Positions 16,342 to 34,759 of a stretch of 64,000 nt of DNA are shown here, piece by piece (the stretch's first letter is position 1; each line of letters opens with the position of its first letter). The notes beneath the pieces are model-generated. The model ran no database searches and was not told where the DNA came from. It saw only the letters and a program-made list of their open reading frames with translations. The stretch comes from Candidatus Eiseniibacteriota bacterium (lineage in GTDB: Bacteria; Eisenbacteria; RBG-16-71-46): the NCBI GenBank assembly GCA_025360715.1, contig JANYBS010000005.1, forward strand, positions 5,571 to 69,570. Direction: 5' to 3'. A program made the translations under genes and the position numbers.

Positions 16342-16344
16342 GAC

Positions 16345-21300: not shown

Positions 21301-23184
21301 TGCCGTGTCGCGGGCGGCCAGGCGCACGCTGCGCGCATACGCGGACGCGGCCATACCGTAGTCGATACGTTCGCGTTCGCTCTCGAGCGTGGCGCGCGCC
21401 TGATCGACGGCGTCTCGCACGACCGCTTCACGCGTGTGCGCGGCCGCGGCCACGAGCGAGTCGGCGAGGCGATCGGCGCGAACGAGCTGCGCCTGCAACA
21501 CGCGCCACTCGTCGCTGGTTCCGGCAGCTAACCGCTCCGCCTCGATGCCGCGGCGCAAGCGGTCACTCCACGCGAGCAGTTCGGCCGCGGTGCTGTCCTG
21601 TGCAACGGTGCGTCCCAGCAGGCCCGGCCGCCAACGATCGGCGTAGGAGCGAGCCAGCAGTTCGGGAGCCTCGCGCGCAAGCGTGCGGTTCAGCCTTTCG
21701 CAGAGCGAGTCGAGCGCCTGCTCCTGAGCCAGCACCGCATCCGGCCGGGGCATGCCCTGGGGCGCCCAACGAAGCTTCGCGCCCGCGGTGCCGCCCAGTT
21801 CGATGCGGCGCATCGCCGCCGCCCACGCGGCCTGAGCGCGCGCCTGAGCCAGCATCTGCTCGGTGCGCGCCAGCAACTGTTGGGTCGCTGCGTCGCGCAC
21901 ACCGCGCAGATGCGCGTCGATGGTAGCGAGCGAGGCTTCGAGCGAGTCCAGCACTGCGCGCTGGCGTTCCAGCGTCGCACGCCGCGCGCCAAGTCCCGCG
22001 AGTCCGCGCGAAAGGTAGATCTGCAGATCCGCCAGGCGGGCTTGCTCGCGCTGCATCGCGCTACGGGTAGCGCCAGCCGCGGCGAACGCAGCGTCGGCAA
22101 GGCTCTCGGCCTGTGTGACGCGCTGCCACGCGGCGGCATCGGGAGGCGGGACCAGCGCGCCATCATCCCTACCGAAGCGATCGTCCCGGCGAATCGCGCG
22201 CGGCGCCGCGGCACTCACCACGATCGCAACCAGCGAATCCCCCTGCACACGCACCGGGTCCTCGGCCAGCGTCCAGGCGTTCCGGATCGCGGCGCGCTCG
22301 CGCCACGCGTCCCAGAGCGTATCGGCGTAGGCGTGCGCGCGCAGGGCCTCGATCCGGTTGGCATCGGCTGCGTGCAGGGAATCCCCACGCGCATAGAGCG
22401 CTTCGGCGTCCTCCCAATGACCCATCTCGAGTGCCTGCGACGCCGCACCGGCCAAAGCCGCGCGCCGAAGGGCGCCGGACGGCGATCGCGCGGCCGTCTG
22501 TTCGAAGGTCACCTGCGCAGCAGCATGGTCGCCACGTTCCGCCGCCCGCTGCGCCTGCCAGAGCCCTGCGCGCAGAGCGGCCTGGGTACCTGCTGGGATC
22601 TGTCGCAGCCATCGCGCGACATCGTCTGCACTCGACGTGGCGCGAGTCGCAAGGCGCAGCGCCGCCGCACCGGCACGCTCACGTCCCGCGGGCCTCAGTG
22701 TGTCAGTGGTCACGATTGCCGCGAGCGCTGCGGGATCATCCTGTGCAGAGCCGGCTAACACACCGGCGGCGCTTGTCGCAGGCATGCCGGCCCGAAGCCG
22801 CGCCTCCGCATCGATCCAGCGCGTCCACACGCTCGCACCACGCCCGATCCGCGCAGACGCGACCGCCGCCGCGATGCTCCGGAATGCCTGCTCATCGCCC
22901 AGCTCCAGCGCCGAATGCGCCGCGAGCAGCGCCGCCCGCTGGGCGTTGTCGCTCGCCGGCAGCGCCTGCCAATCCAGGCCGCGCATCGCCGCCTGCACGC
23001 CGCGCAGATCATGCGCACGTTCGCGCGCGATCGCCCGGCCCAGTGCCAGCGTCACGGCATCGGTCGGCACAACGACCGAGGCGACCTTCGCGGGCGCGCC
23101 TTGCGCGGTGCCCCGGCTTGCGGTGCTCAGCAGCGCCGCCAGCAGGCACGCCCGGACCCCGCGTTGCACTGCAGAGCGTCGCAT
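18391..23184 (-). CDS. Very large (~1598 aa) exported TPR-like repeat protein
   Basis: ATG at 23184 gives a signal peptide MRRSAVQRGVRACLLAALLSTASRGTAQG, 2 nt after the upstream gene's stop. The body is Ala/Arg/Leu-rich helical-repeat sequence with no frame breaks over 4.8 kb. The co-directional gene string supports the minus strand over the three long plus-strand antisense ORFs. Confidence 0.55.
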   Translation of the reverse strand: MRRSAVQRGVRACLLAALLSTASRGTAQGAPAKVASVVVPTDAVTLALGRAIARERAHDLRGVQAAMRGLDWQALPASDNAQRAALLAAHSALELGDEQAFRSIAAAVASARIGRGASVWTRWIDAEARLRAGMPATSAAGVLAGSAQDDPAALAAIVTTDTLRPAGRERAGAAALRLATRATSSADDVARWLRQIPAGTQAALRAGLWQAQRAAERGDHAAAQVTFEQTAARSPSGALRRAALAGAASQALEMGHWEDAEALYARGDSLHAADANRIEALRAHAYADTLWDAWRERAAIRNAWTLAEDPVRVQGDSLVAIVVSAAAPRAIRRDDRFGRDDGALVPPPDAAAWQRVTQAESLADAAFAAAGATRSAMQREQARLADLQIYLSRGLAGLGARRATLERQRAVLDSLEASLATIDAHLRGVRDAATQQLLARTEQMLAQARAQAAWAAAMRRIELGGTAGAKLRWAPQGMPRPDAVLAQEQALDSLCERLNRTLAREAPELLARSYADRWRPGLLGRTVAQDSTAAELLAWSDRLRRGIEAERLAAGTSDEWRVLQAQLVRADRLADSLVAAAAHTREAVVRDAVDQARATLESERERIDYGMAASAYARSVRLAARDTAFAPARVATARTASTEQDDALDDQGAAALRAVAMPRMRAFLAHYPDSPVRGEMRFRLADLEMLAARQQFRDQMAAYLRHEKPGAPVPVLAQDRALALYRQILTNDPAFPHRDAVLFDAGMILADAGDPAFEHDFRTLVSEHPGSPYCAEAWVRMGDARFQAKRYVEAAQAYAHATASPGGDPTLAAIADYKRGWSHFNEDRFLSAADAFRSVLDRYETTAERPQVDLRTESGDYLVIALAGAGGAPAFVAYFDTLGERPYAAPMLLSLAQHLRTHGALLQATQADEAYLARYPQTPQALLSAQRELATWERADRAADAQGARVTLAPRFAAGSAWARSQTNDSLRAAGDAFAHDATRQASALAHERARTSGDPQAWAQALQLDLALLAQWAKDPEAARFALAAGEASARLGRTDEAMAHYADAARGGADSIAVVALWQRVALVDAAYEHARHANAAAARGPDSLAQAVLHEGDAFVQRFPTHVHSPEILWREGQLALAHGWQDRASADLARFVARDSNDARAPLAASQRAQVFVAQADFALAEVAFGAAARLAVRAHRDTLARQALAAMPVCAYRAAEAAAATDTSAHRAMAKAFEQMAQRYPADSLAARAQYRASLAWLRAGDRGEALRALAVVTDHYARSGYARDAQVQVAQTLEAAGRSSASADAYLRFAAGFPKDDGAGAAELKAAELFAGAGAPARADSLRVAYMRMHPDDVPGVMAILAALAKRELDAVDAQHPLSALLPAARTRQTGAPSHLAAYLLLGTKHPDLVSHSLVAQLRFTQGEDVRRSFDAVALKQPLPKSIAVKKALLDTLLARYRRGVDSGDPLWAHASALRMGQSLLAFADALQHAERPADLTGADRAAYDDVLRSRAQVFSDRGVGVLTQLLRQVRSAHAADDAWTAQAQSLLWERLADRFQFHPEVDMPLVDEDAQARMQDESRSGERDNPKAHSGQAAPRGTHPKEGGSR

Positions 23185-23186
23185 CG

Positions 23187-24044
23187 TCACTCGTTCGTCC
23201 CCGCCGCGACGGCCGAGCCCTGCCGCGTCCACGTGGTCGCCGCGATGCTGCTTGCGCCATGCTCGGCGTTCAGATTCGTCAGGTCGAGCCGCACGCACAG
23301 CAACTGGTCTCGTGCGGGCTCCACGGTCAGGTAGCCGCAGTCATGGGCGGCCCACAAGGTGCCGGCCAGGCCGACTTCAATCAGTTGCGGGCGTGGTTCG
23401 ATCAGGCCATGGAAGAGTTCCAGGATCCCGCCGGCGCGCAACGTGGCGCGCGCAGCATCGTCAAGCGGCACAGTAAGAGTGTCGCCGTCTTCCAGGTGAA
23501 GCGTGATGTCGCCGACCGCGTTCGCTCCCGGATCGCCGCTCACGACCACGAGCATCGCCGTCTGTTGATGCTGGTCGAAGTCGGCCTGCAAGGCGCCCAG
23601 CCCGGCGCGTTGCGCATCCAGCATGCGGCCCATCTGATCGAGCTGCGCTTCGAGAAGCCCAAGGTCGGTGACGCTACCGAGCAGTCCGCGCTGCTGACGC
23701 GATGCCTCGGCGCGCGTGAGCGAGTCACTCGCGTTGGCCACGCCGGCCAGCAGGTGCGCGTAGTCAAGATAGCGTGGATCCATTGCCGCCGCATCCTGCG
23801 ACACATCCAAGGCGCGCTGCTGGACGCGATCCAAGCGGCCACGGATGAAGTCGCGGTTCGCGCGGAAGAACCGCAGTGTCTCGATCCGCTCATGCTCCGG
23901 CTTGCGGCGTTGGAGCCGAACCGTTTCAGCCGCCAACGGCGCCGTGGGCGCTTCCTGTGCGCGCACGGAGTCCGTCAGGAGCACGCTGCACGCGAGCATC
24001 GCCAGTATGGGCCGCGGCCCTGCGAGCCAAGCAAGGAACCGCAT
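23187..24044 (-). CDS. Exported hypothetical protein
   Basis: Signal peptide MRFLAWLAGPRPILAMLACSVLLTDSVRAQ from ATG 24044. 286 aa with a coiled-coil-like middle region (LDAQRAGLGALQADFDQHQQ). It is tightly coupled to both neighbours. Confidence 0.45.
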   Translation of the reverse strand: MRFLAWLAGPRPILAMLACSVLLTDSVRAQEAPTAPLAAETVRLQRRKPEHERIETLRFFRANRDFIRGRLDRVQQRALDVSQDAAAMDPRYLDYAHLLAGVANASDSLTRAEASRQQRGLLGSVTDLGLLEAQLDQMGRMLDAQRAGLGALQADFDQHQQTAMLVVVSGDPGANAVGDITLHLEDGDTLTVPLDDAARATLRAGGILELFHGLIEPRPQLIEVGLAGTLWAAHDCGYLTVEPARDQLLCVRLDLTNLNAEHGASSIAATTWTRQGSAVAAGTNE

Positions 24045-24633: not shown

Positions 24634-25509
24634 CTAGAAGAGGATCTCGCTACCCAGCGTGAATTCGATATTGTTCGCGGCGAGATGACTGGAGTCGTTG
24701 CGGGGGCGGAAGTGATAGTCACGCACCTCCCAACGCATGGCCGCGCGCTTCGACAAGAAGAGCTTGGTGCCCGCTCCGAAGTTCACGCTGGGCTCGCTGC
24801 GACCCAGCATGACAGCCGAACCCACACCACCGCCCACATACGGCACCATCTGCCGGCCGGGCATGAGCTCCCATGTCACGTTCATCTGGTAGAAGAGCAT
24901 CGAGAACTTCTCGGCCTCGAGCGACAACCCGAAGAGCGACTCGACGATCTCGGCGGGTCGATGCACCCGCGTCCACGAGACACCGGCCTCGGCCACGATG
25001 CGATCGAACACGTAGTAGCCCACACGGCCACCCACGACCGCCGAATTCGATTTGCGATCGAACGCGTAGGCACCGGAATAGCCGCTGACCACGTAGCTAC
25101 CCGTGCGCGTGTAGACCTTGGGGTTCGGACGGAACTGCAGGCCCGACAAGTCGTCCTGCACGCGGCAGAGTGACGCATGCACCCAGCCGGTCTCGGTCTC
25201 GGACAGCTTGACCCCATACCACTCGTCACTCTTGGCGATCACCGGAAAGGACAGCTTCGCGGGATAGACGCCCACGATGGCGTACGCATCGCCGGGCCCC
25301 GAACGCACGACGTTCCCGGACTTCCCCGTGAGTTCGATGCGCTTCTGCCCGACCTGCATGGGGGCGTTCGGGAAGTCGCGCTGCTTGGGCGCCGCTGAAT
25401 CGGGGGCGACGGCGGCGGCCGTTGGCGTCAGAGCCGGCGCTTCGTCTGCACGCGTCGCACCGGCGTGCAACAGAACGCCCAACAACGCGCCACCCGTGAC
25501 CGCTCGCAT
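24634..25509 (-). CDS. Bacterial SH3-domain + outer-membrane beta-barrel (OmpA-like TM domain) protein
   Basis: ATG at 25509 gives the signal peptide MRAVTGGALLGVLLHAGATRA. The SH3b-like segment is YAIVGVYPAKLSFPVIAKSDEWYGVKLSETETGWVHASL. It is followed by alternating beta-strands and ends ...FTLGSEILF with a terminal aromatic. Confidence 0.5.
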   Translation of the reverse strand: MRAVTGGALLGVLLHAGATRADEAPALTPTAAAVAPDSAAPKQRDFPNAPMQVGQKRIELTGKSGNVVRSGPGDAYAIVGVYPAKLSFPVIAKSDEWYGVKLSETETGWVHASLCRVQDDLSGLQFRPNPKVYTRTGSYVVSGYSGAYAFDRKSNSAVVGGRVGYYVFDRIVAEAGVSWTRVHRPAEIVESLFGLSLEAEKFSMLFYQMNVTWELMPGRQMVPYVGGGVGSAVMLGRSEPSVNFGAGTKLFLSKRAAMRWEVRDYHFRPRNDSSHLAANNIEFTLGSEILF

Positions 25510-25549
25510 CCATCTCGAGCTCGCATCTCCCGCTGTGCCGATCACCGCA

Positions 25550-26188
25550 TCACCTCCCAAGGATCCTGTAGGAGAGCCCGAGCCGAATCGTCCAATCCGC
25601 AAACGTCTCACTGGCGCGAACGATGTCTGCGCCGCTGCGATGCGCCGTGTCGAGCGCGAACCACTCACGCGTGGCTTCACCGCTGGCGGACCAGCCGCCC
25701 GCGAGCGGGCGCTCGACTGCCAGGCCGACGCTGGCGCTGCCCGTGTCGATGGGAGCAAGGCGCACCGGCGTCGAGGTGCCCGTTCCTGTCGCCACATCCA
25801 CATGATCCGGCGCGTAGCCCAGATGCAGCAGGCCGGCGCCCGCCTGCAGCGACCACTTCGCACCCAACCTGCGCGCCATCGTGGCTCGGGCAACGAGCTC
25901 GGCGCGCGTGCGATGGACATCGGGAGACGCGCTTGCGAGCGAGGCGTCGAGTTGTTGCGTGGTCACGGTGCGCCAGACACGCACTCCCAGCGATCCGCGT
26001 AGGACCGATGCGCGTACTTCCGCGCCCAGACCCGCTCGGGCACGCAGGTTCCACTGATAGTCGGCCAGGTGCGGGTCAGCGAGCGTGGTACCGCTCAACA
26101 CGCCGGCGGACAGCACCGCGGCATGGACCGGGCACGCGCTCACCGCGATCAGGTACACCGCGGCGCAGGCGATGACGAGGCGACGCAT
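25550..26188 (-). CDS. Small outer-membrane beta-barrel-like exported protein
   Basis: ATG at 26188 (MRRLVIACAAVYLIAVSACPVHA). 212 aa, beta-rich, C-terminus ...LSYRILGR. It overlaps the upstream gene's stop. Confidence 0.4.
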   Translation of the reverse strand: MRRLVIACAAVYLIAVSACPVHAAVLSAGVLSGTTLADPHLADYQWNLRARAGLGAEVRASVLRGSLGVRVWRTVTTQQLDASLASASPDVHRTRAELVARATMARRLGAKWSLQAGAGLLHLGYAPDHVDVATGTGTSTPVRLAPIDTGSASVGLAVERPLAGGWSASGEATREWFALDTAHRSGADIVRASETFADWTIRLGLSYRILGR

Positions 26189-26826
26189 CAGCGAGATTCC
26201 TGTGCGGCCATCGCCGGTGCGGGCACGGGGTTCCTGAACTCCATGCCCACGGGCAGGATCTGCATCTCGTTCGAGCGGAAGGGCGTCACGACGATCGTAT
26301 CGCCCTGGATGCGCTCGATCTTCTGACCCGAGCCCATGTAGCAAAGCAGGAACACGCCGCCATGCCCCGCGCCTGTGGAGTCGAGCACGGTGGGGATGTG
26401 GCCCTGAAAGGTGAATGTTAGCGGCTGGATCAGATGGTCCCAGCCCGTGACGGGGATCAACGCCCGGCCCAGCGTCGTGGAGTGGGCGAGCAGTGAATCG
26501 ATGTCGGTCGCCATGCGCAGGCGTTGAGCGTCGGGCGCCACCTCCACCGTGCCGGGGTCGATCGTGGCGCTCGCGCGCAGTTCCGCGACGGCGTATCCAG
26601 TGACGATGTGCCGGTAGGTGATGGTGGCCTGCACCGAGACCGATTCCTGCGCGCCCAACGTGACCGTCTCGAAAGGTGTGAGGTTCGAGTGCAGCAGGTC
26701 GACGCGCGTCCAACGATCCTCGAGCTTGGGCGCATCGAAGCACCCGCTGAGCAGCGCGGACGTGGCCATGCCCATGACGGCAAACCTGACCATGGCGGCC
26801 GGCCGGCGCAGGTGTGCGGCGTTCAT
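26188..26826 (-). CDS. Lipoprotein, hypothetical
   Basis: ATG at 26826, with a lipobox LLSGC after MNAAHLRRPAAMVRFAVMGMATSA. About 212 aa. Confidence 0.45.
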   Translation of the reverse strand: MNAAHLRRPAAMVRFAVMGMATSALLSGCFDAPKLEDRWTRVDLLHSNLTPFETVTLGAQESVSVQATITYRHIVTGYAVAELRASATIDPGTVEVAPDAQRLRMATDIDSLLAHSTTLGRALIPVTGWDHLIQPLTFTFQGHIPTVLDSTGAGHGGVFLLCYMGSGQKIERIQGDTIVVTPFRSNEMQILPVGMEFRNPVPAPAMAAQESR

Positions 26827-28466
26827 CGCACCACCGCCACGCGGCGCGTCTCGTGCGTGGCACCGGCGTCGAGACGATAGAAGTAGACCCCGGCCTTCAC
26901 GTCGTGGCCGCGATCGTCCGTGCCGTCCCACGCGACGTCCTGAAGACCGGCGGTAGCCAGCGGCGCGAACGTGCGCACGCGCCGGCCGTTGGTATCGTAG
27001 AGCGCGAGTTCCGGCCTGCTGCGCAGGTTCGCGGGCAGCACGAACGAGATACGCGTCACGGGCTTGGCCGGGTTGGGCGAGTTGCCGAGCAGTTGTGCGC
27101 GCGTCGCGCTCACGCCGCTGCCGGTGGCACGGAAGGCCGCCTGTGCCACGTCGTCGGCGCCGTTGTGGTACGCCGAGCGGGCGTTCACGCCGAGCACGAG
27201 GTCGCTTCTACCCTGGAAGCCGCTCAGGTCGTCGGCGTTGAGCGCGATGGTGCGCGCGCCGGCGTCCAGCACGCCCAGGTCGCGCGTGGTGAGCGTGCGA
27301 CCACTCGCCGCATCGCGCACCGTGAGCGTGACGGCAGCTCGGTCGGTGAGAAGGAAGCTGGCGACCGGGGCGGCCGTGGCATCCACCGCGAGATTCGCGA
27401 CGCCGGCGCCAAGGTTCCAGAGCCGCATCCCGTTCGCGCCGTCCCAATCCTCCATCGTGAGAGCGCCCGCCTCCGCCGTGCGCGCCTGGGTGCCATCGCG
27501 GTGGTCATGCACACTGGCGAACGCCACGTGCACGTTGCGCGGGTGCTCCAAGCCGGAGCTCATCTGCGCCACCGGCTCAAGAGCCGCGTTGAACTTGGCG
27601 AGCACGCCTTGCTGCGGCGCCGCGGCGTAGACGTTGCCCCACGCATCGGTCGACAGCGACGTCACGGCATCGGCTCCCGAGGGCGCGGCTCCCGCCCACC
27701 GCAGGCTGCCGCCTTGCATCTGCAGTCGGACGATGCGGCGATTGTGGGCATCCGCCACATAGACGGTATTCGTGTTGGCACCGTTCGCGCGCCCTACGGT
27801 GATCGCCATCGGGCCCGCGAAGGCGCCGTCGCCATTGCCAAGGCCGCCGATCGCGCCCAACGGCCGGGCGCCGGCCGCGCCCAGTGCGAACGCGGCCACC
27901 TGGTTGCGGCCCGTGTCGGCCACGTAGAGCAGGTCGTCCTCCGGGTGGAACGGCGTGCCGTTGTCCGAGACGGCCACGTCGTACGGCGCGTGCAGGCCGC
28001 CGATCACATAGAGAGGTTTCAGGGTCAGGTGCCCGTACTCGGGCACGGCCTGGAGCACGACGATGCGGTCATTGCCGCGGTCGGCCACGTAGACACGGTC
28101 GTTCTCATCCACCGCCATGCCGCGCGGCTCGGAGAGCGCACCCGCAGTCGTGCCCGAACCATCGAAAGCCGAGAGCGTCTGGCCCGGTTCGCTGCACACC
28201 AACCGGTTCCATTGCGGATCGCTGGCGATCTGGAAGCGCCGCGTCTCCACGTAGGGAAACACGTCGTAGATATCGGTGTCGGTGATCAGGACCGTGGCGT
28301 AGGGCTGCGAGAACACATCGCGCCCGAGTTGCGCGCGGGCGACCGAGCGATCGAGCGCGTCCACGCCCAGCGCCGGCAGGAGCGGCGCGTGCGTGAACGT
28401 CGCCGCGTGGGCCGACGCTGCAGCCGCCATCGTGAGGCCCAGAGTCAGAAGCGTGCGCTTGCGCAT
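26823..28466 (-). CDS. NHL-repeat beta-propeller protein with FlgD-Ig / T9SS-like C-terminal sorting domain
   Basis: ATG at 28466 is preceded by AAAGGAG. The signal peptide is MRKRTLLTLGLTMAAAASAHA. NHL-like blades include PRGMAVDENDRVYVADRGNDRIVVL and TVYVADAHNRRIVRL. The C-terminus NSPNPAKPVTRISFVLPA...LALYDTNGRRVRTF...WDGTDDRGHDVKAGVYFYRL matches the FlgD-Ig-like / T9SS C-terminal-domain consensus. Confidence 0.65.
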   Translation of the reverse strand: MRKRTLLTLGLTMAAAASAHAATFTHAPLLPALGVDALDRSVARAQLGRDVFSQPYATVLITDTDIYDVFPYVETRRFQIASDPQWNRLVCSEPGQTLSAFDGSGTTAGALSEPRGMAVDENDRVYVADRGNDRIVVLQAVPEYGHLTLKPLYVIGGLHAPYDVAVSDNGTPFHPEDDLLYVADTGRNQVAAFALGAAGARPLGAIGGLGNGDGAFAGPMAITVGRANGANTNTVYVADAHNRRIVRLQMQGGSLRWAGAAPSGADAVTSLSTDAWGNVYAAAPQQGVLAKFNAALEPVAQMSSGLEHPRNVHVAFASVHDHRDGTQARTAEAGALTMEDWDGANGMRLWNLGAGVANLAVDATAAPVASFLLTDRAAVTLTVRDAASGRTLTTRDLGVLDAGARTIALNADDLSGFQGRSDLVLGVNARSAYHNGADDVAQAAFRATGSGVSATRAQLLGNSPNPAKPVTRISFVLPANLRSRPELALYDTNGRRVRTFAPLATAGLQDVAWDGTDDRGHDVKAGVYFYRLDAGATHETRRVAVVR

Positions 28467-28495
28467 GGGAGACTCCTTTCCGCGACCTGCGAGCT

Positions 28496-29641
28496 TCACT
28501 GGAAGCGAAGCTCGAGTCCGGTCTCGAGGATGTTCGCGGAGTAGTTGTTGCTGTTGAAATAGCGCTCGTAGTGCAGCCAGAGCGCAGGCGCGCCCAGATG
28601 CGGGTGCGCGGCGGCGAAGCCGTCCATGTCCAGGTGGAGCGAGACCCCGAAGAGATGCGAGGCCAGGTCATTCATGCGGTAGTCGGCCGTGCGATATCCG
28701 CCGATGCCGTTCACGCTGGCGTATTCGTGCGCATAGAAGTCCGCCTTGCCCTGCGTGTACCAGCGGTACTCCCAACTCGTGCTGAGCGCGTGCGTCACGT
28801 ACTGGCTCAGATCCGCGCTCAACTCGTGCGAAGTGATGCCCCAGTCATCGTTGTAGAGCCGATAGTCGGCTTTGATGCTCGAGCGGTTCGCCATGTAGTG
28901 GCTGAGCTTGACGAACGCATCGCGGCGCTCGCGGGTGGAGGGATGACGCTCGGGGACGCGCGTGCCGCCGGCGTAGACGTTGCGGTAGATGTTGTGTTGC
29001 AGGCCTTCCACGTGGAACAACTCGACGCCGCCGCGCACCAGCGTGCTCGGGCTGAGCACCTGTGTGGCGACCACGCTGCCATGGAGCGTGTTCTTGTGCT
29101 GCCGGATGGAAGCCGAGCGCTCGTCGGCGAGTGGCGTGATCGCGTCCCAGCCGTAGCTGGTCGACACGGCCACGTTGAACGTCTGGTCGCGGAGATCCCG
29201 GTCGGCGTGCGCGCCGAACTGCTGGCCCAGATAGTCGACCTCGCGCGACACGTAGTATTCGGCGCCCACGTGCGACCGCGCGATCTCGGCGGTCAGCTCG
29301 TTGCGCGTCTTCACATAGTCTTCGAAGGCGTTGCCTTCGATCGGCCGGCTCGCAGTCGTGATCGCGTCGATCGCGTCCTGGCTGCCGGCTGGCGCCGAGA
29401 TCGCGGGAATCGTGACCTGCTCGTTGTTCCAATGCAGCGACAGCGATTCCGCGCCATGGCCGAGCGGAGCCGCATAGTCGCCGCTCATGGCACGCACGCG
29501 CACGCCGCCCGAGTCCGTGAACAACCGGAACATGGAATACAGCGAAGCTTCCTCGGCCACCGTGGCCGAACGCGCACGCGTGGCGCAGAGCGCCGAAAGC
29601 GCGAGCGTGAACGCCGCCCCATGAGTCCGCTTCAGTTGCAC
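28496..29641 (-). CDS. DUF3570 family exported protein, copy 2
   Basis: GTG at 29641 overlaps the DUF4266-2 stop by 10 nt, the same geometry as copy 1. The signal peptide is (M)QLKRTHGAAFTLALSALCATRA. It shares motifs with copy 1: IDAITTAS vs IDGITGAS, and DYRLYNDDWGITSHELSADL vs YRRYWDDWDIRSHTIDVRY. Confidence 0.65.
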   Translation of the reverse strand: MQLKRTHGAAFTLALSALCATRARSATVAEEASLYSMFRLFTDSGGVRVRAMSGDYAAPLGHGAESLSLHWNNEQVTIPAISAPAGSQDAIDAITTASRPIEGNAFEDYVKTRNELTAEIARSHVGAEYYVSREVDYLGQQFGAHADRDLRDQTFNVAVSTSYGWDAITPLADERSASIRQHKNTLHGSVVATQVLSPSTLVRGGVELFHVEGLQHNIYRNVYAGGTRVPERHPSTRERRDAFVKLSHYMANRSSIKADYRLYNDDWGITSHELSADLSQYVTHALSTSWEYRWYTQGKADFYAHEYASVNGIGGYRTADYRMNDLASHLFGVSLHLDMDGFAAAHPHLGAPALWLHYERYFNSNNYSANILETGLELRFQ

Positions 29642-29880
29642 GCGCAGCCTCCGCCGGCGCCGCCGGTGCCGCCCGTGGAGCCTTCTCGGGCCTCGAATGC
29701 TTTCATCTGTCGAGCTTTGAGCTTGGCCTGTGCATCCAGCGAGACGATACGGTCGACCAGATGCTCGCGTTGATACACCGCCACCGGCGCAGCACACCCG
29801 CCTGCGCCCAACGCGGCTGCGAGCGCACTCATCGCGACCGCCACGACCGCCACCTTCTTGCCAAGCTGATTGCGGTTCAT
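29632..29880 (-). CDS. DUF4266 family small lipoprotein, copy 2
   Basis: 82 aa with lipobox LGAGGC and C-terminus ...GSTGGTGGAGGGCACN, compared with GGGCGCN in copy 1. The TlpA-2 stop overlaps its ATG as ATGA. Confidence 0.7.
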   Translation of the reverse strand: MNRNQLGKKVAVVAVAMSALAAALGAGGCAAPVAVYQREHLVDRIVSLDAQAKLKARQMKAFEAREGSTGGTGGAGGGCACN

Positions 29881-30452
29881 CGCGACCCTCCCTCGTTACT
29901 GCTCGCGGCCACCGCATGCCCGGCAAGCAGGCGCATGGCCTGATCGCGAAGTTCGGCGACCGCTGCGTCATCACTGCGGTTCGTCACGTACACCACACGG
30001 CCGTCACGATCGAGCACGACCGCCACCGGCACATTCGTGAGTGCCAGCTGCTTGGCCAGCCCTTCGGGGCCGTCCGCGAACACGCTCAGATGCAGCGCGT
30101 GGTCGCGGATGAAGCGCTGGATGTTGCCGTGGTCCGTATCCAGCGAGACGGCGAGCACGCGGCCACCCGCAGCCTGGAGCGCGTGGTCGAGCGCATCCAG
30201 CCGCGGCAGCTCGCGCCGGCACGGCGCACACCACGTCGCCCACAGGTCCACGACGACCACCTGGCCCTTGAGATCCGCCAGCGTCAGCGCGCCACCATCC
30301 AGACGCTGGAACGTGTGGGCGGCCAGCGCCGTCGCGGCGGCCTCGCGGCTCACGCCGAGTCCGGCGCCCGCCGCGGCCGCTTGCGTTGATCGCGGCGTAG
30401 CCGATGCCAGCGCAGCCGCCAGCAGAAGTGCCGACACTCGGTACGCTTGCAT
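29877..30452 (-). CDS. TlpA-like thiol:disulfide oxidoreductase (WCAPC), copy 2
   Basis: ATG at 30452 (MQAYRVSALLLAAALASATPRSTQAAAAG). Motif VVDLWATWCAPC. 191 aa, starting 8 nt after the stop of the cytochrome gene. Confidence 0.8.
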   Translation of the reverse strand: MQAYRVSALLLAAALASATPRSTQAAAAGAGLGVSREAAATALAAHTFQRLDGGALTLADLKGQVVVVDLWATWCAPCRRELPRLDALDHALQAAGGRVLAVSLDTDHGNIQRFIRDHALHLSVFADGPEGLAKQLALTNVPVAVVLDRDGRVVYVTNRSDDAAVAELRDQAMRLLAGHAVAASSNEGGSR

Positions 30453-30460: not shown

Positions 30461-32431
30461 TCACTTGTACTGGGCGCCCAGCAGCACCCAGAGGTTGAAG
30501 AGACGCTTCTCGTCGGCGGTGAGCGAATCGCTCGTGGCCGGGTGTGCGAGTTGACCCGCATGCGAGCCCAGCGCCATGACGTAGTCGACCAGTGGCGAGC
30601 GGCGCGGGAAGGCGGGATCGACTTCCTGGTGCGCGAGCTTCATCGACTCGCCCGACAGGTTGATGTACGCGCGCGGGAAGATGCCGCGCATGCGGCTGGT
30701 ATCCGCTACCGCGGTCAGGTCCAAGCCGCCGGCCGCCGGCGTGCTGCCGTTCGGCGTATGGCACGACATGCACTTGGCGGTCACGATCGGACCGATGTCG
30801 TTCTGGTAGTTGATGACGCGAAAACTCGCGCGCGGCTTGTTCAAGTCGAAGGCCGGTTGGTGCGCGGCCATCGGATCCGGATTCGTCGACACCGGCCCGC
30901 CCACGCGGCGATCCTCGTGGCAGCCGACGCAGTTCTTGAACTCCTCGCCCGGCCGCACATAGAGATGGGTGCGCTTCACCACGATGCCGCGGCCATGCTC
31001 GTCGAGCGTTGCGAAGCTGATCGGTGTATTCGCGGGGATCTTGATCCGGAACGAACCGTCGGGATAGACCGGCGCCATGCCGATCAGCGCGCGTTTCTCG
31101 AATTCGTTCGCCGAGAAGTCATTCATCTCACCGACCACCGTGGGCCGCGCGGCGATGACCGCGATGCTGTCGATCGGCTGCTGGCCGCGGATCGGGACTT
31201 CCTGGCCGTCGCTGGTGCTGCGATTGAACACGTCCTGCGCCAGGAACACGCCATAGTCGACCGAGTGGTCCACGATCGAGGCGATGACCGGCGGCTTCGC
31301 ATGCGGCGCCAGGAGCTGCGCATCGAGTTCCTGGGTGCCCGCGTCGTTGTAGAGGAACGTCAGGTCGTGGATCGCGAAGGTGGCCGGGCTGGCCACGGTG
31401 CCGGCGCCCGTCTGGTCCAGCGTGAAGGTATAGAGCGCGTAGTCCGTCTGGTCCTTGGTCGCGGCCGGCAGCGAGTACGAGACCACGTAACGATTGCCAC
31501 CGATGGAGCGCGCGTACTTGAACGCACCGTGCGGCCACGGCATGCCGTCCTCGTTCACCTGCGGGGTCAAGACGTCCCAGTGCAGGTCTTGCGGGCCCAG
31601 TTCCGGATCCGCCGGGCCCTGTTCGGGCTTGAGCACGGCGATAGGGCCCTCGTCGCCATTGACCATGGTGGAGCCGATGGCGATGAGGCGGCCTTCGGGC
31701 GTGACCGTGGGGTGGAAGAAGTTCATCCCATGCGGACCGAACTTGTGGAACGTGCCGGTGCCGTCCGGATTGGTCACGAAGAGCGGGAATCGGTTCATCG
31801 TGCCGAAATGCTCCCAGCGCGTGTACACGATGCGGCCGTCAGGCAACAGCTCGGGGTCGAAGTCGTCCGATTGATTGAAGCTGACTCGCTCGATGTTGCT
31901 GCCGTCATAGTCGCACGTATGCAGCGTGGCGCTCGGGGCGTGGTTGTATTCGTCCATCTCGCCGGCGCGCGTACTGGTGAACATCACGCGGCCATCGGGC
32001 AGGTAGAGCGGGTCGAAGTCGTCGCCGCCGCCACTTGTGACCTGGCGCATGTTCGTGCCATCGGCATCGATCTCGTAGATGTTGCGCTGCGAGCCGCCGG
32101 ACGGGCGCATCGAGAAGAGGATCTTCTTGCCATCGAACGAGACCGCCGGATCCGAGATGCTGGCTCCCGTGAAGCTCGTGATCGGCGTCACCAAGCCATC
32201 CGGGGAGATCGGCGAGAGCTTGTACAGGTTGCTGCTGGCGTTCGTACGATTGAGCGTTTCAGAGGAAGTGGCCTTCACGAATACGAGCGCTTGCGTCGTA
32301 CTCACCTGCTGGATCAGGTCGCTTGGCGCGCTCTCGCGACAACCGGTCAACGCGCCGGGCAGCAGCAGTACCGCGAGCCAGAGGGCAAGCGGCTTGAGGC
32401 GTAGGTGTTTCTCGAGGGGGTGTGCGTGCAT
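30461..32431 (-). CDS. TolB/PD40-like beta-propeller fused to diheme c-type cytochrome (hydrazine-synthase-alpha-like architecture) lipoprotein
   Basis: ATG at 32431 gives a lipoprotein signal MHAHPLEKHLRLKPLALWLAVLLLPGALTGC. PD40-like blades include FDGKKILFSMRPSGGSQRNIYEIDADG, LPDGRVMFTS and LPDGRIVYTR. The C-terminal region has two CXXCH heme-binding motifs (NCVGCHEDR and KCMSCHTPNG). 656 aa. Confidence 0.65.
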   Translation of the reverse strand: MHAHPLEKHLRLKPLALWLAVLLLPGALTGCRESAPSDLIQQVSTTQALVFVKATSSETLNRTNASSNLYKLSPISPDGLVTPITSFTGASISDPAVSFDGKKILFSMRPSGGSQRNIYEIDADGTNMRQVTSGGGDDFDPLYLPDGRVMFTSTRAGEMDEYNHAPSATLHTCDYDGSNIERVSFNQSDDFDPELLPDGRIVYTRWEHFGTMNRFPLFVTNPDGTGTFHKFGPHGMNFFHPTVTPEGRLIAIGSTMVNGDEGPIAVLKPEQGPADPELGPQDLHWDVLTPQVNEDGMPWPHGAFKYARSIGGNRYVVSYSLPAATKDQTDYALYTFTLDQTGAGTVASPATFAIHDLTFLYNDAGTQELDAQLLAPHAKPPVIASIVDHSVDYGVFLAQDVFNRSTSDGQEVPIRGQQPIDSIAVIAARPTVVGEMNDFSANEFEKRALIGMAPVYPDGSFRIKIPANTPISFATLDEHGRGIVVKRTHLYVRPGEEFKNCVGCHEDRRVGGPVSTNPDPMAAHQPAFDLNKPRASFRVINYQNDIGPIVTAKCMSCHTPNGSTPAAGGLDLTAVADTSRMRGIFPRAYINLSGESMKLAHQEVDPAFPRRSPLVDYVMALGSHAGQLAHPATSDSLTADEKRLFNLWVLLGAQYK

Positions 32432-32466: not shown

Positions 32467-33102
32467 TCATGGCTGGACCGTGCGATAGAACGAGAGCCCG
32501 ATCGTTCCCTGCGAATACGGGTAGGTCACGACACCTTCGTGGTCGCGCTGCTGGCCGAACACGATCGCGTGACGCAGGTCGGCGCGAAGCGCCAGGTCAT
32601 TGCGGATGAAGCATTCGAGCCCGCCACCGATGGAAAGGCTGTTCTTCGTCACAGCGGTCGCGTCCACGGCGCGACCTGGGAAAACGACGATCATCCCGTA
32701 ACCCGCCGTGAGGTAGGGCTGGAGCCGCCCCGACACCGGGCGACGGACGATCGCGCTCAATGTGTGCAACACGGCATGCACGGAAGGCGATGGGTTGTGT
32801 GCCAGCGAGGCTTCGTAGCCGAGCCAATCGCTGGGGTGGTACGCCGCGCGGATCACGAAGAGCGGATCGCTCCCGAACCAGCCGTAACCCGGACTGAACG
32901 CCAGCCGGTTCTGGTAGGGCCGCACGCCTGGCGCCAGCTGGTAGGGGTGCTCGGCCAGCGCCGGATTGAGCGCTTCAAGCACGCGCTTGGGAGCTGCAGG
33001 CGGCGTGAACGAGACGGCCGACGTATCGGCGTCCTGCGCCGCCGCCATGCGGGCGCCAGTGAGCGCTAACCCTAAGGTCATCGCGATGAACAGCGCGCGC
33101 AT
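32467..33102 (-). CDS. Outer-membrane beta-barrel (OmpW/OmpA-like) protein
   Basis: ATG at 33102 (MRALFIAMTLGLALTGARMAAAQD). About 210 aa of alternating beta-strand pattern, ending ...IGLSFYRTVQP. Confidence 0.45.
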   Translation of the reverse strand: MRALFIAMTLGLALTGARMAAAQDADTSAVSFTPPAAPKRVLEALNPALAEHPYQLAPGVRPYQNRLAFSPGYGWFGSDPLFVIRAAYHPSDWLGYEASLAHNPSPSVHAVLHTLSAIVRRPVSGRLQPYLTAGYGMIVVFPGRAVDATAVTKNSLSIGGGLECFIRNDLALRADLRHAIVFGQQRDHEGVVTYPYSQGTIGLSFYRTVQP

Positions 33103-33554
33103 CAGTGCAATACCCCGGCCTGGATCCATCCACGGATCGCGACATAGTCGCTGTCCGCGCGTGAGGCGAAAGTCTTGTACGGATGCGGGTGCCCACCCGC
33201 CGCAAGGTCGAGCGGCTGCTGGAGCACCGCGCTGCTGTCGGCCGCGACGGTGGAGGTCTGCAGCGAGACCTGCGCGAAGTCGTACGCGCTGTCTTTCGCG
33301 TCGGGAGGTGAGAGCTGCAGTGTGCCGCGGATGCCACCCCCGTGACAGTCACCCGTCGCGTCACAGCCCATGCGTTGCAGGCGCGGCTCGACGTCGCTCT
33401 GGAAGCGCGCGTAGTCGAGCGTCAATGTGTGCCCGCCCGCGGGCGGCGCCGGCGGCGCGGTCGGCGAGACACAGCTTTGCGCGAGGGCGGACAACGCGAG
33501 CGACGTGAGCAGGACCGCGGCGCTGCGCGTGCGATCCTGCGGTCGTTCGAACAT
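33102..33554 (-). CDS. Small exported hypothetical protein
   Basis: 150 aa with signal peptide ...AAVLLTSLALSALAQSC. Its stop overlaps the downstream start (ATGA). Contains CDATGDCHGG, which is not a CXXCH motif. Confidence 0.4.
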   Translation of the reverse strand: MFERPQDRTRSAAVLLTSLALSALAQSCVSPTAPPAPPAGGHTLTLDYARFQSDVEPRLQRMGCDATGDCHGGGIRGTLQLSPPDAKDSAYDFAQVSLQTSTVAADSSAVLQQPLDLAAGGHPHPYKTFASRADSDYVAIRGWIQAGVLH

Positions 33555-33736: not shown

Positions 33737-34759
33737 TCAGTCCACCCAGTCGATCTCGAACAGGTCCAGCGCCTGCGGCACGAGCGCGAAGCGGTCTCGA
33801 AGCGATGCGCTGACCCACACTTTGTCTGGTCCATCGGCGCGCGGTTCCACGCAGACGGAAGAGACTCCCTGCACGCTGCGGGCCAAGCGTTTAGCGTCGC
33901 GCGGGCCGAGCACGAAGTAGGCCGTGCTCCAGCCCTCGGCTTCGAGGGCGGAAGGGGCGACGACCGTGACTGAGGAGAACCCTTCCGCCGGCTTGCCGGT
34001 ACGCGGATCAAGCAGGTGCCCGCAGCGACGACCCTCGTGCATGACGAACTGCTCGTAACTGGCGGACGTGGAGATGCCATGGCCGGAGGGGATCTGAAGC
34101 CGTGCAAAATGCGTCATGCGGTCGTGCGGATCGCGTACGCCGATACGCCAGGCAGACGCATCGGCCGGCGTCCCGATCGCGCGCATGTTCCCGGTCAGGT
34201 CCACCAGCGCATCACGAACGCCCCGTGCGGCGAGCGTCTCAGCGGCGCGATCGACCGCGAAGCCCTTGGCGATACCGCCCAGGTCGATGCGGGTGTCCGG
34301 ATGCGTGAAAGCAATTGTGCCCGCTGCGCGATCCAGCGCGATGCGCTCGCTGCCGACGCGCGCGAATGCCGCTGCAGCTTCGGCCGCCGAGGGTACGCGC
34401 CGCGGCCCGCCCAAGAATCCCCAGGCGCGCACGAGCGGCTCGAGCGTGATGTCGAAGGCATGCTCGCTGAGCGCCCATACTCGCAGAGCTTCCGCGACCA
34501 CGGCCGCCACATCCGCGCTGATCGCTGCCGGGCGCGTGCCGGCCTCGCGATTGATCCGGGCGACTTCGCTCGTCTCGGTCCAATTGCTCATCGTACGGTC
34601 CACATCACGGAAGACACCGAATACCGCCTCGGCGTGGATGCTCGCAGCCGCGGCGTCGTCCGTGACCAGCGTCGCGCGCCCATACGTTCCCATCGTACGT
34701 GTCTCGAATGCCACGCTGGCACGCGGGCCGGGCCGCCGCGACAGCGATGTGTGCGGCAT
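33737..34759 (-). CDS. apbE: FAD:protein FMN transferase (ApbE family), copy 2
   Basis: ATG at 34759 (MPHTSLSRRPGPRASVAFETRTMGTYGRATL...). ApbE motifs R-x-x-MGT, DLGGIAKGFAVDR and DPRTGKPA are present. 340 aa, with no obvious signal peptide. It is divergent from the outer-membrane receptor gene. Confidence 0.75.
   Translation of the reverse strand: MPHTSLSRRPGPRASVAFETRTMGTYGRATLVTDDAAAASIHAEAVFGVFRDVDRTMSNWTETSEVARINREAGTRPAAISADVAAVVAEALRVWALSEHAFDITLEPLVRAWGFLGGPRRVPSAAEAAAAFARVGSERIALDRAAGTIAFTHPDTRIDLGGIAKGFAVDRAAETLAARGVRDALVDLTGNMRAIGTPADASAWRIGVRDPHDRMTHFARLQIPSGHGISTSASYEQFVMHEGRRCGHLLDPRTGKPAEGFSSVTVVAPSALEAEGWSTAYFVLGPRDAKRLARSVQGVSSVCVEPRADGPDKVWVSASLRDRFALVPQALDLFEIDWVD

Follow-up and report, generated by a model that had tools for sequence, protein, structure and literature searches.

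A hydrazine-synthase-alpha-related diheme cytochrome lipoprotein linked to an ApbE/DUF3570/DUF4266/thioredoxin-like gene cluster in Eisenbacteria

The extracytoplasmic system composed of ApbE, DUF3570, DUF4266 and thioredoxin-like proteins was described as flavinylation-associated in hundreds of genomes, with cytochromes unmentioned among its members (Meheust et al., 2021, eLife; PMC8238504). In this system DUF3570 is flavinylated by ApbE, DUF4266 carries a CXC motif, and the associates include a thioredoxin-like protein as well as DsbD, the first being found in 183 of the 227 DsbD-linked DUF3570 clusters and in 316 more, and the second adjoining about 40% of the published DUF3570 clusters and hence not obligatory (PMC8238504). 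The other closely related object is the alpha subunit of hydrazine synthase (HzsA). In its bona fide representatives heme alpha-I is ligated proximally by Tyr591 (in H-Y-G-S-Y, which follows CXXC), and His587 is diverted to Zn (PMC12758564, PMC12607021). Non-anammox HzsA homologues from Planctomycetota, Desulfobacterota and others were recently arranged into clades I–IV, chosen because fused beta-gamma homologues and an FG-GAP/CRTAC1 gene lie beside them, and were found to have lost Cys303 along with Tyr591 (Hagglund et al., 2025; PMC12758564); that report contains no mention of ApbE, DUF3570, thioredoxin, flavin or Eisenbacteria. Here, we describe a locus of a Candidatus Eiseniibacteriota bacterium, contained in a 64,000-nt stretch of contig JANYBS010000005.1 (hereafter the window), where an HzsA-like gene stands inside a cluster of the first type (Table 1). 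Two large families of unknown function, non-anammox HzsA-related cytochromes (761 clusters at 50% identity matching at E 1e-30 or better) and flavinylated DUF3570 systems, prove to be coupled here, in genome position as well as in evolution, within specific clades.

Table 1. Features of the HzsA-like gene, of the surrounding cluster (module 2) and of module 1, in window coordinates
Feature	Position	Strand	Remarks
HzsA-related (HZS_alpha-domain) diheme c-type cytochrome lipoprotein	30461..32431	-	656 aa, ATG to TGA
Signal peptide and lipobox LTG-C (residues 1-31) of the HzsA-like protein	32339..32431	-	Cys31 invariant
PD40/TolB-like beta-propeller, N-terminal, residues ~46-400	31232..32296	-	
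HZS_alpha middle domain, residues 437-506, ending in heme site 1	30914..31123	-	PF18582
Heme-binding motif 1, C501-V-G-C504-H505	30917..30931	-	aligns with HzsA C-S-G-C-H587
Heme-binding motif 2, C554-M-S-C557-H558, in the C-terminal cytochrome c-like domain	30758..30772	-	
His630, candidate sixth ligand of heme 2, in the loop of HzsA His772	30542..30544	-	His in 76/78 orthologues
ApbE FAD:protein FMN transferase, first gene of the cluster	33737..34693	-	264 bits
p150, 150-aa lipoprotein without Pfam match	33102..33554	-	syntenic in 73/73 loci
Small outer-membrane beta-barrel protein (OMP_b-brl), directly upstream of the HzsA-like gene	32467..33102	-	77/77 loci
TlpA-2, secreted thioredoxin-fold protein with WCAPC	29877..30452	-	
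DUF4266-2, small lipoprotein ending in GGGCACN (C-terminal CXC)	29632..29880	-	
DUF3570-2, short divergent DUF3570, 109 bits (DUF3570-1: 288 bits)	28496..29641	-	
NHL-repeat propeller protein with FlgD_ig / T9SS-type C-terminal sorting domain	26823..28499	-	
SH3_3 + OMP_b-brl protein, extended cluster	24634..25920	-	counterpart in Thioalkalivibrio cluster
Large TPR-like proteins, extended cluster: 1649-aa ORF (18391-23340) and TPR protein (17402-18394)	17402..23340	-	
MotA/ExbB (16345-17067), two ExbD (15862-16341 and 15378-about 15850), TonB_C (14177-15373)	14177..17067	-	
Module 1: TlpA-1, DUF4266-1, canonical DUF3570-1 (motifs ITGAS, VTSAS)	11229..13269	+	without cytochrome gene

The open reading frame proposed by the first-pass annotation proved to be real and belongs to the minus strand, which that annotation did not indicate. 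An alternative ATG at 32470 would give a 669-aa form overlapping (ATGA) with the stop codon of the upstream outer-membrane protein gene; the shorter start is favoured because orthologues are about 655 aa long. The N-terminus, KHLRLKPLALWLAVLLLPGALTG followed by C, combines a signal peptide with a lipobox, and Cys31 of the latter is kept in 65 of 65 homologues. The lipoprotein is expected to face the periplasm, presumably from the outer membrane. Adjacent genes of the cluster abut or overlap by a few nucleotides, and the spacing of 8 nt previously noted between the stop codon of the HzsA-like gene and the start of TlpA-2 is confirmed.

The architecture suggested earlier, that is, a propeller joined to an HZS_alpha middle domain and a diheme cytochrome, is seen both at the sequence level (Pfam, PDB) and in the predicted fold, and the assignment to the family and fold of HzsA is close to certain. 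The middle domain is recognised by Pfam PF18582 with E 3.9e-18 and 66.2 bits versus the gathering cutoff of 26.6, and the same domain is precomputed in all 120 closest homologues. The top PDB sequence match is HzsA of Kuenenia stuttgartiensis (PDB 5C2V chain A, 3.2e-18), with TolB coming next, and the family profile aligns with HzsA at 7.8e-25 over five collinear stretches. The AlphaFold model (pLDDT 76.6, pTM 0.78; low confidence at residues 557-606 of the C-terminal domain) is matched by Foldseek to 5c2v_A along the whole length and over all three domains (E 1.9e-29, TMq 0.70, TMt 0.60), the runner-up being TolB, which covers the propeller alone (5e-10, TMq 0.32). Domain order is the same as in HzsA, namely propeller, middle domain ending in CXXCH and cytochrome c domain with the second CXXCH (here residues ~510-656), although the two proteins are only about 18% identical. 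The propeller is supported by the strand-rich model at residues 48-400, by propeller fold matches and by a partial match to the TolB model, together with a Pfam PD40 match of 38.8 bits, and is marked by the family-specific motifs MDEYNH (159-164), TRWEHFG (204-210) and FGPH..NFFH (231-240). Placement among plain TolB-like proteins was considered as well: PD40-type blades are common to both, and TolB is the best non-HzsA match by sequence and fold, but it has neither heme domains nor a lipid anchor, and the TolB equivalog (TIGR02800) gives 70.4 bits versus 343, being restricted to residues 82-251.

Both CXXCH motifs recorded in the first-pass annotation (CVGCH at 501-505 and CMSCH at 554-558) are present. 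None of the 78 orthologues departs from either of them, and all of 35 divergent members of the HzsA-like family have both; the protein has six Cys in total, and the number of such motifs expected from composition is 0.0018. Heme is presumably attached covalently to them. Motif 1 is followed by E-D-R-R-V with conserved E506 and R508 (the latter in 78/78 orthologues), and the +4 position, corresponding to HzsA Tyr591, is variable (R, G, V, H or A) and is not Tyr. Since neither Tyr591 nor Ser590 has an equivalent, the His of this motif presumably serves as a normal heme ligand. In this respect the protein resembles the homologues of Hagglund et al., which belong to the same superfamily, share the loss of Tyr591 and have a canonical heme-c pocket at site 1 (PMC12758564). 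For heme 2, the alignment points to His630 as the probable sixth ligand, which would make it a low-potential bis-His heme similar to heme alpha-II, the equivalent site of hydrazine synthase, whose Em of about -330 mV (PMC12607021) fits donors of the thiol or flavin type. The loop in question carries His in all DUF3570-associated clades, exactly at the His772 position in the gammaproteobacterial one, and Met (IMPPP) in some HzsA-like relatives not linked to DUF3570; Hagglund clade I, in contrast, is devoid of the His772 equivalent (PMC12758564). An intramolecular path from heme 2 to heme 1 may be absent in this protein too.

Hydrazine synthase identity was rejected on the basis of the NCBIfam equivalog hydrazine_alpha (NF052339), which gives 86.8 bits versus the cutoff of 800, the missing Tyr591 ligand and the missing beta/gamma partner: no match to hzsB/hzsC, CCP/MauG-type or hydrazine synthase beta/gamma proteins was obtained among cluster genes or other scanned ORFs of the window. 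One might still suppose a nitrogen-cycle enzyme with HZS-alpha-like chemistry on hydroxylamine, NO or hydrazine, for instance in periplasmic detoxification of hydroxylamine or NO, to which the DUF3570 relay would supply electrons. Homology to HzsA across all three domains, propeller motifs common to both proteins (MDE[FY], S..FDP..PDG) and the proposal of others that hzs-like genes make up a wide family directed at alternative substrates (PMC10732223) speak for this version. Nevertheless, besides the low equivalog score, the hallmarks of the heme alpha-I site are absent, and the same residues are lost in other non-anammox homologues (PMC12758564). The only conserved non-motif cysteine, C173 (71/78), does not align near Cys303, the Zn ligand in the propeller of HzsA, lying about 60 residues before its equivalent region, by a position extrapolated from the alignment. 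Moreover, the cluster and scanned ORFs contain no CCP-like diheme plus propeller partner, and there are no nitrogen-cycle genes near the HzsA-like gene, so that such an enzyme seems quite improbable. Genomic partners also differ: instead of HzsB and HzsC or anammox genes, the lipoprotein is accompanied by flavin and thiol redox proteins, and instead of the beta-gamma or FG-GAP genes of the Hagglund clades, it is adjoined by ApbE, p150, OMP, TlpA, DUF4266 and DUF3570.

Comparison with the system of Meheust et al. reveals the same set of ApbE, DUF3570, DUF4266 and thioredoxin-like (Redoxin/AhpC-TSA) genes in one contiguous cluster on the minus strand (28496-34693), including the CXC end of DUF4266 and a flavinylation-type site in DUF3570. 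The C-terminal stretch of DUF4266-2 with CXC is kept in 47 sequences, and DUF4266 is called on an identical contig (L002). ApbE of the window lacks the hydrophobic signal seen in orthologues. The canonical triad also occurs in module 1, and the earlier claim that the HzsA-like gene is embedded in module 2 without a counterpart in module 1 stands, as no HZS_alpha gene adjoins the latter. The departures from the published version, which is deprived of a cytochrome component, are several. The short DUF3570 subtype always comes with the HzsA-like diheme lipoprotein, a CX4-5CH lipoprotein and small OMPs, while TPR and ExbB/ExbD-type genes stand further downstream in loci examined that far. The CX4-5CH lipoprotein is p150, with the invariant motif G-C64-x5-C70-H71-G-G-G-x-R-G (CX4CH in Thioalkalivibrio), and it may be a cytochrome c-like partner. 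The flavinylation motif of the Eisenbacteria-type proteins is T-[T/S/G]-A-S, not [S/T]GA[S/T]: DUF3570-2 has D-A-I-T-T-A-S-R-P as a variant of the family form D-A-I-T-[T/S/G]-A-S-R-P, and the second position of T-x-A-S is T in 48, S in 11, G in five and A in two of 66 sequences. T-T-A-S of DUF3570-2 is thus to be treated as a non-canonical, putative flavinylation site, the canonical version being retained in module 1 (ITGAS) and in DUF3570 of Thioalkalivibrio (ISGAS).

The possible co-occurrence with DUF3570, raised in the first-pass annotation, was assessed in 80 species-representative genomes (Eisenbacteria/Krumholzibacteria-type MAGs), taking as denominators the loci with enough flank. DUF3570 accompanies the HzsA-like gene at 65 of 65 Eisenbacteria-type loci, with orthologues down to 58% identity, and the order p150-OMP-HzsA-like-TlpA-DUF4266-DUF3570-NHL is essentially invariant. 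OMP is found in 77/77 loci, p150 in 73/73, NHL in 62/62, TlpA in 65/68 and ApbE in 44/59, the latter missing from its usual upstream position in the other 15; three loci keep the cytochrome and DUF3570 with no TlpA detected. Synteny within one lineage could be partly inherited rather than selected, yet this is argued against by rearranged and gammaproteobacterial clades which keep the linkage. In a 44%-identical clade (loci L083 and L084) the order is DUF3570-NHL-Hzs-TlpA-DUF4266, and in a distant clade with proteins of about 950 aa it is ApbE-Hzs-p150-like-OMPs-TlpA-DUF4266-DUF3570. Among the members of this distant clade, which lacks the NHL gene, are Thioalkalivibrio sulfidiphilus HL-EbGr7, an organism in culture, and a second gammaproteobacterial genome. 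Outside these clades, at least 15 other HzsA-like loci with at least 5 kb of flank on each side contained none of the genes of the DUF3570 system.

Such persistence bears on the supposition that an ordinary, independent periplasmic cytochrome was inserted by chance in the DUF3570 operon of one lineage and hitch-hikes there. This would agree with the fact that most HzsA-like relatives do not adjoin DUF3570 genes and that module 1 manages without the HzsA-like gene. However, the linkage is observed in at least three divergent clades with differing gene orders and in different phyla, Gammaproteobacteria included, it has no exceptions among the Eisenbacteria-type loci, and the DUF3570 that goes with it forms a short subtype of its own, which leaves chance insertion very improbable. 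The HzsA-like gene is locked into the DUF3570 system, the new point being tight linkage that is repeatedly conserved, and functional partnership between the two is considered likely. In this way the DUF3570 relay gains a candidate heme end-point, and the HzsA-like protein gains a defined set of redox partners.

TlpA-2 had been interpreted as a CcmG/ResA-like reductant of apocytochrome cysteines, linking heme-c maturation to the DUF4266/DUF3570 pair; in its full form this reading implies that it serves CXXCH of the HzsA-like apocytochrome and also p150. The protein does have a thioredoxin fold with WCAPC and is matched in part by the models of TlpA, ResA and DsbE, and TlpA follows the cytochrome gene, here at the short distance given above, in nearly all orthologous loci. 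Nevertheless, the link turned out to be unsupported, because the same triad stands without a cytochrome in module 1 and because a thioredoxin-like protein is standard in the published clusters, where cytochromes are unmentioned (PMC8238504). Scores of TlpA-2 are far below family cutoffs (ResA 72 versus 170, DsbE 39 versus 123, TlpA 83 versus 230), no ccm, res (resBC) or dsbD genes were found within the window, and the three loci with cytochrome and DUF3570 yet no detectable TlpA are also difficult to reconcile with it. Maturation as the connecting principle is therefore improbable, and holding the CXXCH cysteines in the reduced state may at most be a side role of TlpA-2.

Taken as a whole, our explanation is that the HzsA-like protein is not a hydrazine synthase but a subunit or partner dedicated to one specialised subclass of the extracytoplasmic electron-transfer system built on ApbE, DUF3570, DUF4266 and a thioredoxin-like protein, and this explanation is favoured with moderate confidence. 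This grade blends near certainty about identity and fold, good confidence in the partnership with DUF3570 and considerable doubt about the order of the relay and catalysis at heme 1. Most likely, the protein serves as the heme-bearing redox end-module in an envelope relay that runs from thiol to flavin to heme. Thiol reducing equivalents would enter the periplasm via an unlinked DsbD-type protein and pass through TlpA-2 to CXC of DUF4266; this electron source is assumed, because none of the ORFs scanned in the window encodes a DsbD/CcdA domain, and locus L163 has none within 10 kb either. From there they would move to FMN attached covalently by ApbE to the barrel protein DUF3570-2, and then to the hemes of the HzsA-like lipoprotein, perhaps also to p150 with its CX5CH. 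Heme 1, placed at the interface of propeller and middle domain, would be the likely substrate-facing site. The particular sequence of steps, along with a catalytic role of heme 1, is tentatively proposed and rather doubtful, and the direction of electron flow and catalysis by the HzsA-like protein as such are likewise presumed. The partnership also has a bearing on how hydrazine synthase arose from periplasmic heme proteins that existed before it (PMC12758564).

The same-strand run, which measures roughly 20 kb from ApbE onwards, continues downstream of DUF3570-2 through the NHL gene and large TPR proteins, and is terminated by the MotA/ExbB, ExbD and TonB_C genes. This continuation could be taken as an indication that the HzsA-like protein is mainly a structural, TolB-like envelope part of a Tol-Pal/TonB-like machine, its hemes being there for redox sensing or as a structural cofactor and not as an electron outlet. 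TolB ranks directly after HzsA among the matches, and the TPR/ExbB extension is kept in Thioalkalivibrio and another gammaproteobacterium. Against this, the TolB equivalog score is low and limited to part of the propeller, strict conservation falls on both CXXCH motifs and on the His ligand, and redox proteins, namely TlpA, DUF4266 and DUF3570, make up the invariant close neighbourhood, ApbE being upstream in most loci, so a chiefly structural role has a low probability, comparable to that of the nitrogen-cycle enzyme. Returning to the relay, its boldest extension, which we regard as unlikely, would unite the whole run (ApbE, p150, OMP, HzsA-like, TlpA, DUF4266, DUF3570, SH3-OMP, giant TPR, ExbB/ExbD/TonB) into a previously unrecognised envelope-spanning redox machine, with electrons relayed to an outer-membrane-anchored, catalytically active HzsA-like cytochrome, a process that a TonB/Tol-like motor might gate or energise. 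If true, it would provide the first physiological role for the large non-anammox HzsA family and would show the kind of periplasmic heme protein from which hydrazine synthase was recruited. The cluster of Thioalkalivibrio sulfidiphilus HL-EbGr7 occupies about 579-587 kb of CP001339.1; since this organism is cultured, genetics and biochemistry of the same cluster are possible, and MotA_ExbB likewise comes there after TPR genes.

The ORF at 30461-32431 encodes, as read from the sequence in the first-pass annotation, a 656-aa lipoprotein with CVGCH and CMSCH motifs; every particular of this reading holds, and the gene lies on the minus strand (ATG to TGA). An alternative start at 32470 would give a 669-aa form, and its ATG overlaps the stop codon of the upstream OMP gene as ATGA (32467-32470), while the ATG at 32431 has a GGGAGG ~14 nt before it, so that the true start is ambiguous; the shorter form is preferred because orthologues are ~655 aa long, and the mature lipoprotein is identical with either start. 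A lipoprotein signal (KHLRLKPLALWLAVLLLPGALTG/C) forms the N-terminus, its lipobox Cys31 being invariant (65/65 homologues). Six Cys are present in total, one being the lipid anchor and four belonging to CVGCH (501-505) and CMSCH (554-558), and against 0.0018 CXXCH motifs predicted by composition two are observed. Pfam assigns residues 437-506 to HZS_alpha (PF18582, 66.2 bits vs cutoff 26.6), along with PD40 repeats and marginal cytochrome c matches near the second CXXCH. The top sequence relative in PDB is HzsA, the hydrazine synthase (HZS) alpha subunit of Kuenenia stuttgartiensis (5c2v_A, 3.2e-18), TolB being next, and the family profile matches HzsA in five collinear stretches (7.8e-25). 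The AlphaFold2 model, built on an alignment of 65 homologues (pLDDT 76.6, pTM 0.78; confidence being low for the signal peptide and, in the heme domain, for residues 557-606), retrieved HzsA by Foldseek as by far the first match in PDB (E 1.9e-29, TMq 0.70), all three domains being spanned, followed by TolB over the propeller only (5e-10, TMq 0.32). In the model, propeller, middle and cytochrome domains therefore pack as in HzsA, which is the check that the first-pass annotation had proposed, and the earlier call of an HzsA-like propeller-cytochrome architecture proved right by Pfam, by PDB sequence match and by predicted fold. The product is thus a lipoprotein of HzsA fold, as modelled, in which both c-heme motifs are strictly conserved.

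This protein is no hydrazine synthase: it reaches 86.8 on the NCBIfam equivalog model vs a cutoff of 800, and homologues of the beta or gamma HZS subunits were not found among the scanned ORFs of the cluster and window. Heme alpha-I of HZS is unusual in that the CXXCH His587 and Cys303 bind Zn and Tyr591 is the iron ligand (PMC12758564; PMC12607021). In the HzsA-like protein H505 is followed by E-D-R-R-V, of which position +4 is variable and E506 and R508 are conserved, and on these grounds heme 1, at the CVGCH site, should have an ordinary His ligand. Compared with HzsA, the family shows the key-residue loss known likewise from other non-anammox homologues (Hagglund et al. 2025, PMC12758564). 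Within the loop that holds the distal ligand His772 in HzsA lies H630 (His in 76/78 orthologues), and gammaproteobacterial relatives have a His at the exact His772 spacing; IMPPP at this loop in some relatives without DUF3570 linkage suggests Met ligation there. Heme 2, at the CMSCH site, if bis-His, would probably be of low potential like heme alpha-II of HZS (~ -330 mV; PMC12607021). In HZS the distance between the two hemes of the alpha subunit does not allow electrons to pass efficiently (PMC12607021), a caveat for the mechanism proposed below. Propeller residues D160, E161, Y162, H208, F228, H240 and Y331 are conserved in ≥95% of the 20 DUF3570-linked sequences compared, which represent four clades, whereas ≤20% of the 15 unlinked relatives have them, a comparison resting on very divergent sequences whose alignment may be imperfect. 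They could mark the place where a substrate or a metal binds, or an interface with a partner. The MDE[FY] propeller motif is also found in Kuenenia HzsA.

Features of the two DUF3570 modules, the extended cluster and their surroundings in the window
Feature	Position	Strand	Remarks
ApbE	33737-34693	-	FAD:protein FMN transferase; first in transcription order
p150	33102-33554	-	150-aa lipoprotein without Pfam match
Small OM beta-barrel	32467-33102	-	OMP_b-brl
HzsA-like gene	30461-32431	-	fourth in transcription order
TlpA-2	29877-30452	-	thioredoxin fold, WCAPC
DUF4266-2	29632-29880	-	C-terminus GGGCACN
DUF3570-2	28496-29641	-	divergent short subtype
NHL-repeat protein	26823-28499	-	T9SS-type C-terminal domain
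SH3+OMP protein	24634-25920	-	extended cluster
Two proteins without assigned function	after SH3+OMP protein	-	extended cluster
1649-aa ORF	18391-23340	-	extended cluster; no Pfam match
Second TPR protein	17402-18394	-	extended cluster
MotA/ExbB	16345-17067	-	extended cluster
ExbD	15862-16341	-	extended cluster
ExbD	15378-about 15850	-	extended cluster
TonB_C protein	14177-15373	-	extended cluster
Module 1 (TlpA-1, DUF4266-1, DUF3570-1)	11229-13269	+	without HzsA-like gene
CarboxypepD_reg + OMP_b-brl_3 protein	34951-37923	+	outer-membrane protein, 990 aa; divergent from ApbE
Polyketide_cyc2/SRPBCC protein	37924-38664	+	divergent from ApbE
FeoB ferrous iron transporter + DtxR-type iron-dependent repressor	50674-53799	-	~18 kb from cluster

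The start of TlpA-2 follows the HzsA-like stop codon by 8 nt, as previously noted, and the neighbours in this module 2 include ApbE, DUF3570, DUF4266 and a thioredoxin-like protein, which together make up the flavinylation-associated system described by Meheust et al. (2021, PMC8238504). To estimate the constancy of this arrangement, one genome per species was scanned with patterns from the HzsA-like family alignment, giving 113 relatives, of which the best 80 (58-76% identical, nearly all from Eisenbacteria, Krumholzibacteria or Latescibacteria-type MAGs) were analysed. Counted over loci with enough flank among these 80, the neighbours were OMP (77/77), p150 (73/73), NHL (62/62), TlpA (65/68), ApbE (44/59) and DUF4266 (46/68, a value held down by the limited sensitivity of tblastn to a protein of this size, the TlpA-DUF3570 spacing of the remaining negative loci having room for it), while co-occurrence with DUF3570, singled out for checking in the first-pass annotation, was found at 65/65 loci of the Eisenbacteria-type family. 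To look beyond this lineage, metagenome contigs were scanned with an alignment built from the nearest outgroup clusters, whose mutual identity is 39-45%, and their flanks were searched with an HMM of each partner; off-frame “TlpA2” matches inside Hzs ORFs of high-GC loci were discounted as Ala-rich artefacts. A clade of 44% identity (L083, L084) keeps the core partners in the changed order DUF3570-NHL-Hzs-TlpA-DUF4266. Distant lipoproteins of ~950 aa with three CXXCH motifs and only ~150-200 bits to the window protein, placed in Gammaproteobacteria by homologue search, reside in the cluster ApbE-Hzs-p150-like-SH3/OMP-OMP-TlpA-DUF4266-DUF3570. Cultured Thioalkalivibrio sulfidiphilus HL-EbGr7 carries the latter in its complete genome (CP001339.1:570377-593211), its DUF3570 having the canonical ISGAS and its p150 counterpart CX4CH; another gammaproteobacterial genome has the cluster as well. 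DUF3570-system genes are missing from at least 15 further HzsA-like loci whose flanks reach at least 5 kb on each side; therefore the linkage is clade-specific. Its recurrence across phyla and survival of rearrangement argue for functional coupling rather than inherited synteny alone, and the HzsA-like gene is genetically locked to genes of a thiol/flavin redox relay. Several unlinked HzsA-like genes stand in tandem with one or two paralogues, the products being 750-1200 aa long (L089, L108, L137, L138, L142, L151), in contrast to the single-copy DUF3570-linked clades.

Non-anammox relatives of HzsA are described as a widespread family of unknown function (PF18582; PMC12758564; PMC10732223) and carry the name “HzsA-related protein” in a source database; 761 clusters at 50% identity match the HzsA-like protein at E 1e-30 or better. 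Published work on such proteins was sparse in the literature searched. No paper linking DUF3570 to HzsA was found in the searchable literature: the DUF3570/DUF4266 papers covered are silent on HzsA relatives, and a 2025 paper on HZS evolution does not mention ApbE, DUF3570, thioredoxin or flavin (PMC12758564). Thus the protein is a new member of a known family and its combination with DUF3570 a new variant of a known system; the pairing joins two function-unknown families and overturns nothing, and a cultured organism with the same cluster, T. sulfidiphilus HL-EbGr7, is at hand for tests.

While the architectural part of the first-pass interpretation stood, the other part, assigning TlpA-2 a role in heme maturation as the link to DUF4266/DUF3570, did not. 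A thioredoxin-like protein is constant in the DUF3570 system, including the cytochrome-free module 1, for which the absence of an HzsA-like counterpart was confirmed. This standard presence undercuts the heme-maturation reading, as do scores of TlpA-2 far below the ResA and DsbE family cutoffs and the failure to find DsbD/CcdA, Ccm or ResBC genes in the window. Module 1, with neither ApbE nor a cytochrome adjoining, converges on the long minus-strand cluster at its TonB end, and a single 23-kb region is thereby bracketed by two DUF3570 modules.

In the published system ApbE flavinylates DUF3570 at [S/T]GA[S/T] motifs, DUF4266 carries a C-terminal CXC and electrons often come from DsbD (PMC8238504). 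DUF3570-2 is shorter and divergent (109 bits vs 288 bits for DUF3570-1) and has one flavinylation-type site vs two in DUF3570-1 (ITGAS, VTSAS), conserved as D-A-I-T-[T/S/G]-A-S-R-P (D-A-I-T-T-A-S-R-P in the window, residues ~85-93); over 66 family sequences the Gly position of the motif is T in 48, S in 11 and A in 2, only 5 retaining G. The HzsA-like protein has a fit to the motif of its own, T88-G-A-S91, but its flavinylation there was considered and rejected, since the site is not conserved (in 20-22 of 78 orthologues V/E/A stands for T88 and A/T/N for S91); its Gly is part of the PD40 blade consensus. Electrons would enter the proposed relay as thiols, passing from an unlinked DsbD-type protein through TlpA-2 to the CXC of DUF4266, then to FMN on DUF3570-2 and further to the hemes of the HzsA-like lipoprotein, perhaps to p150 too. 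The DUF3570 C-termini resemble OMP beta-signals (...GYSIGW in module 1, ...LSLWY in Thioalkalivibrio). The site facing the substrate would most likely be heme 1, which lies where propeller and middle domain meet and is analogous to heme alpha-I, and the conserved propeller residues of the linked clades may be taken as a supporting hint for this mechanism. Unlike its orthologues, ApbE of the window has no hydrophobic signal/anchor segment directly ahead of the conserved RTMGTY, and no in-frame hydrophobic stretch was found upstream of its ATG at 34693 (33737-35047, minus strand); the start may be a different one, the assembly may contain a frameshift, or this ApbE may not be exported. The divergent CarboxypepD_reg/SRPBCC pair, present on an identical contig (L002), is absent upstream of ApbE in a related genome (L001) and therefore probably lies outside the system. 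Iron-related roles were proposed for some DUF3570 clusters (Meheust et al., PMC8238504); evidence in the window linking the FeoB/DtxR-type genes to the cluster was not found.

The p150 lipoprotein matched neither Pfam nor NCBIfam models, and its predicted helical structure (pLDDT 76) retrieved nothing by Foldseek. Its invariant residues are G-C-x5-C-H-G-G-G-x-R-G and the lipobox Cys, and it might bind heme through an expanded CX4-5CH site, a lead and not a result. Homology of p150 to the C-terminal heme domain of the HzsA-like protein was not supported and likewise stays a lead, BLASTP and profile-profile comparison matching the signal peptide only and Foldseek giving no match. With the p150 HMM, similar domains (E 1e-17 to 1e-21) were detected within ORFs of ~1070 aa (L132:11128-14343, L149:11008-14274, L158:8312-11389) located ~1 kb downstream of HzsA-like genes not linked to DUF3570, and so the p150-type domain may be a general partner of HzsA-like proteins.

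Past the NHL gene the same-strand run goes on over 14177-26800, its 1649-aa ORF having a counterpart in L001 with faint TPR matches. TPR proteins and then MotA_ExbB also continue the cluster in T. sulfidiphilus and another gammaproteobacterium (L163:16698-22835; L165:16730-22889), and this SH3+OMP/TPR/ExbB/ExbD/TonB_C extension hints at a larger Tol/TonB-like envelope machine.
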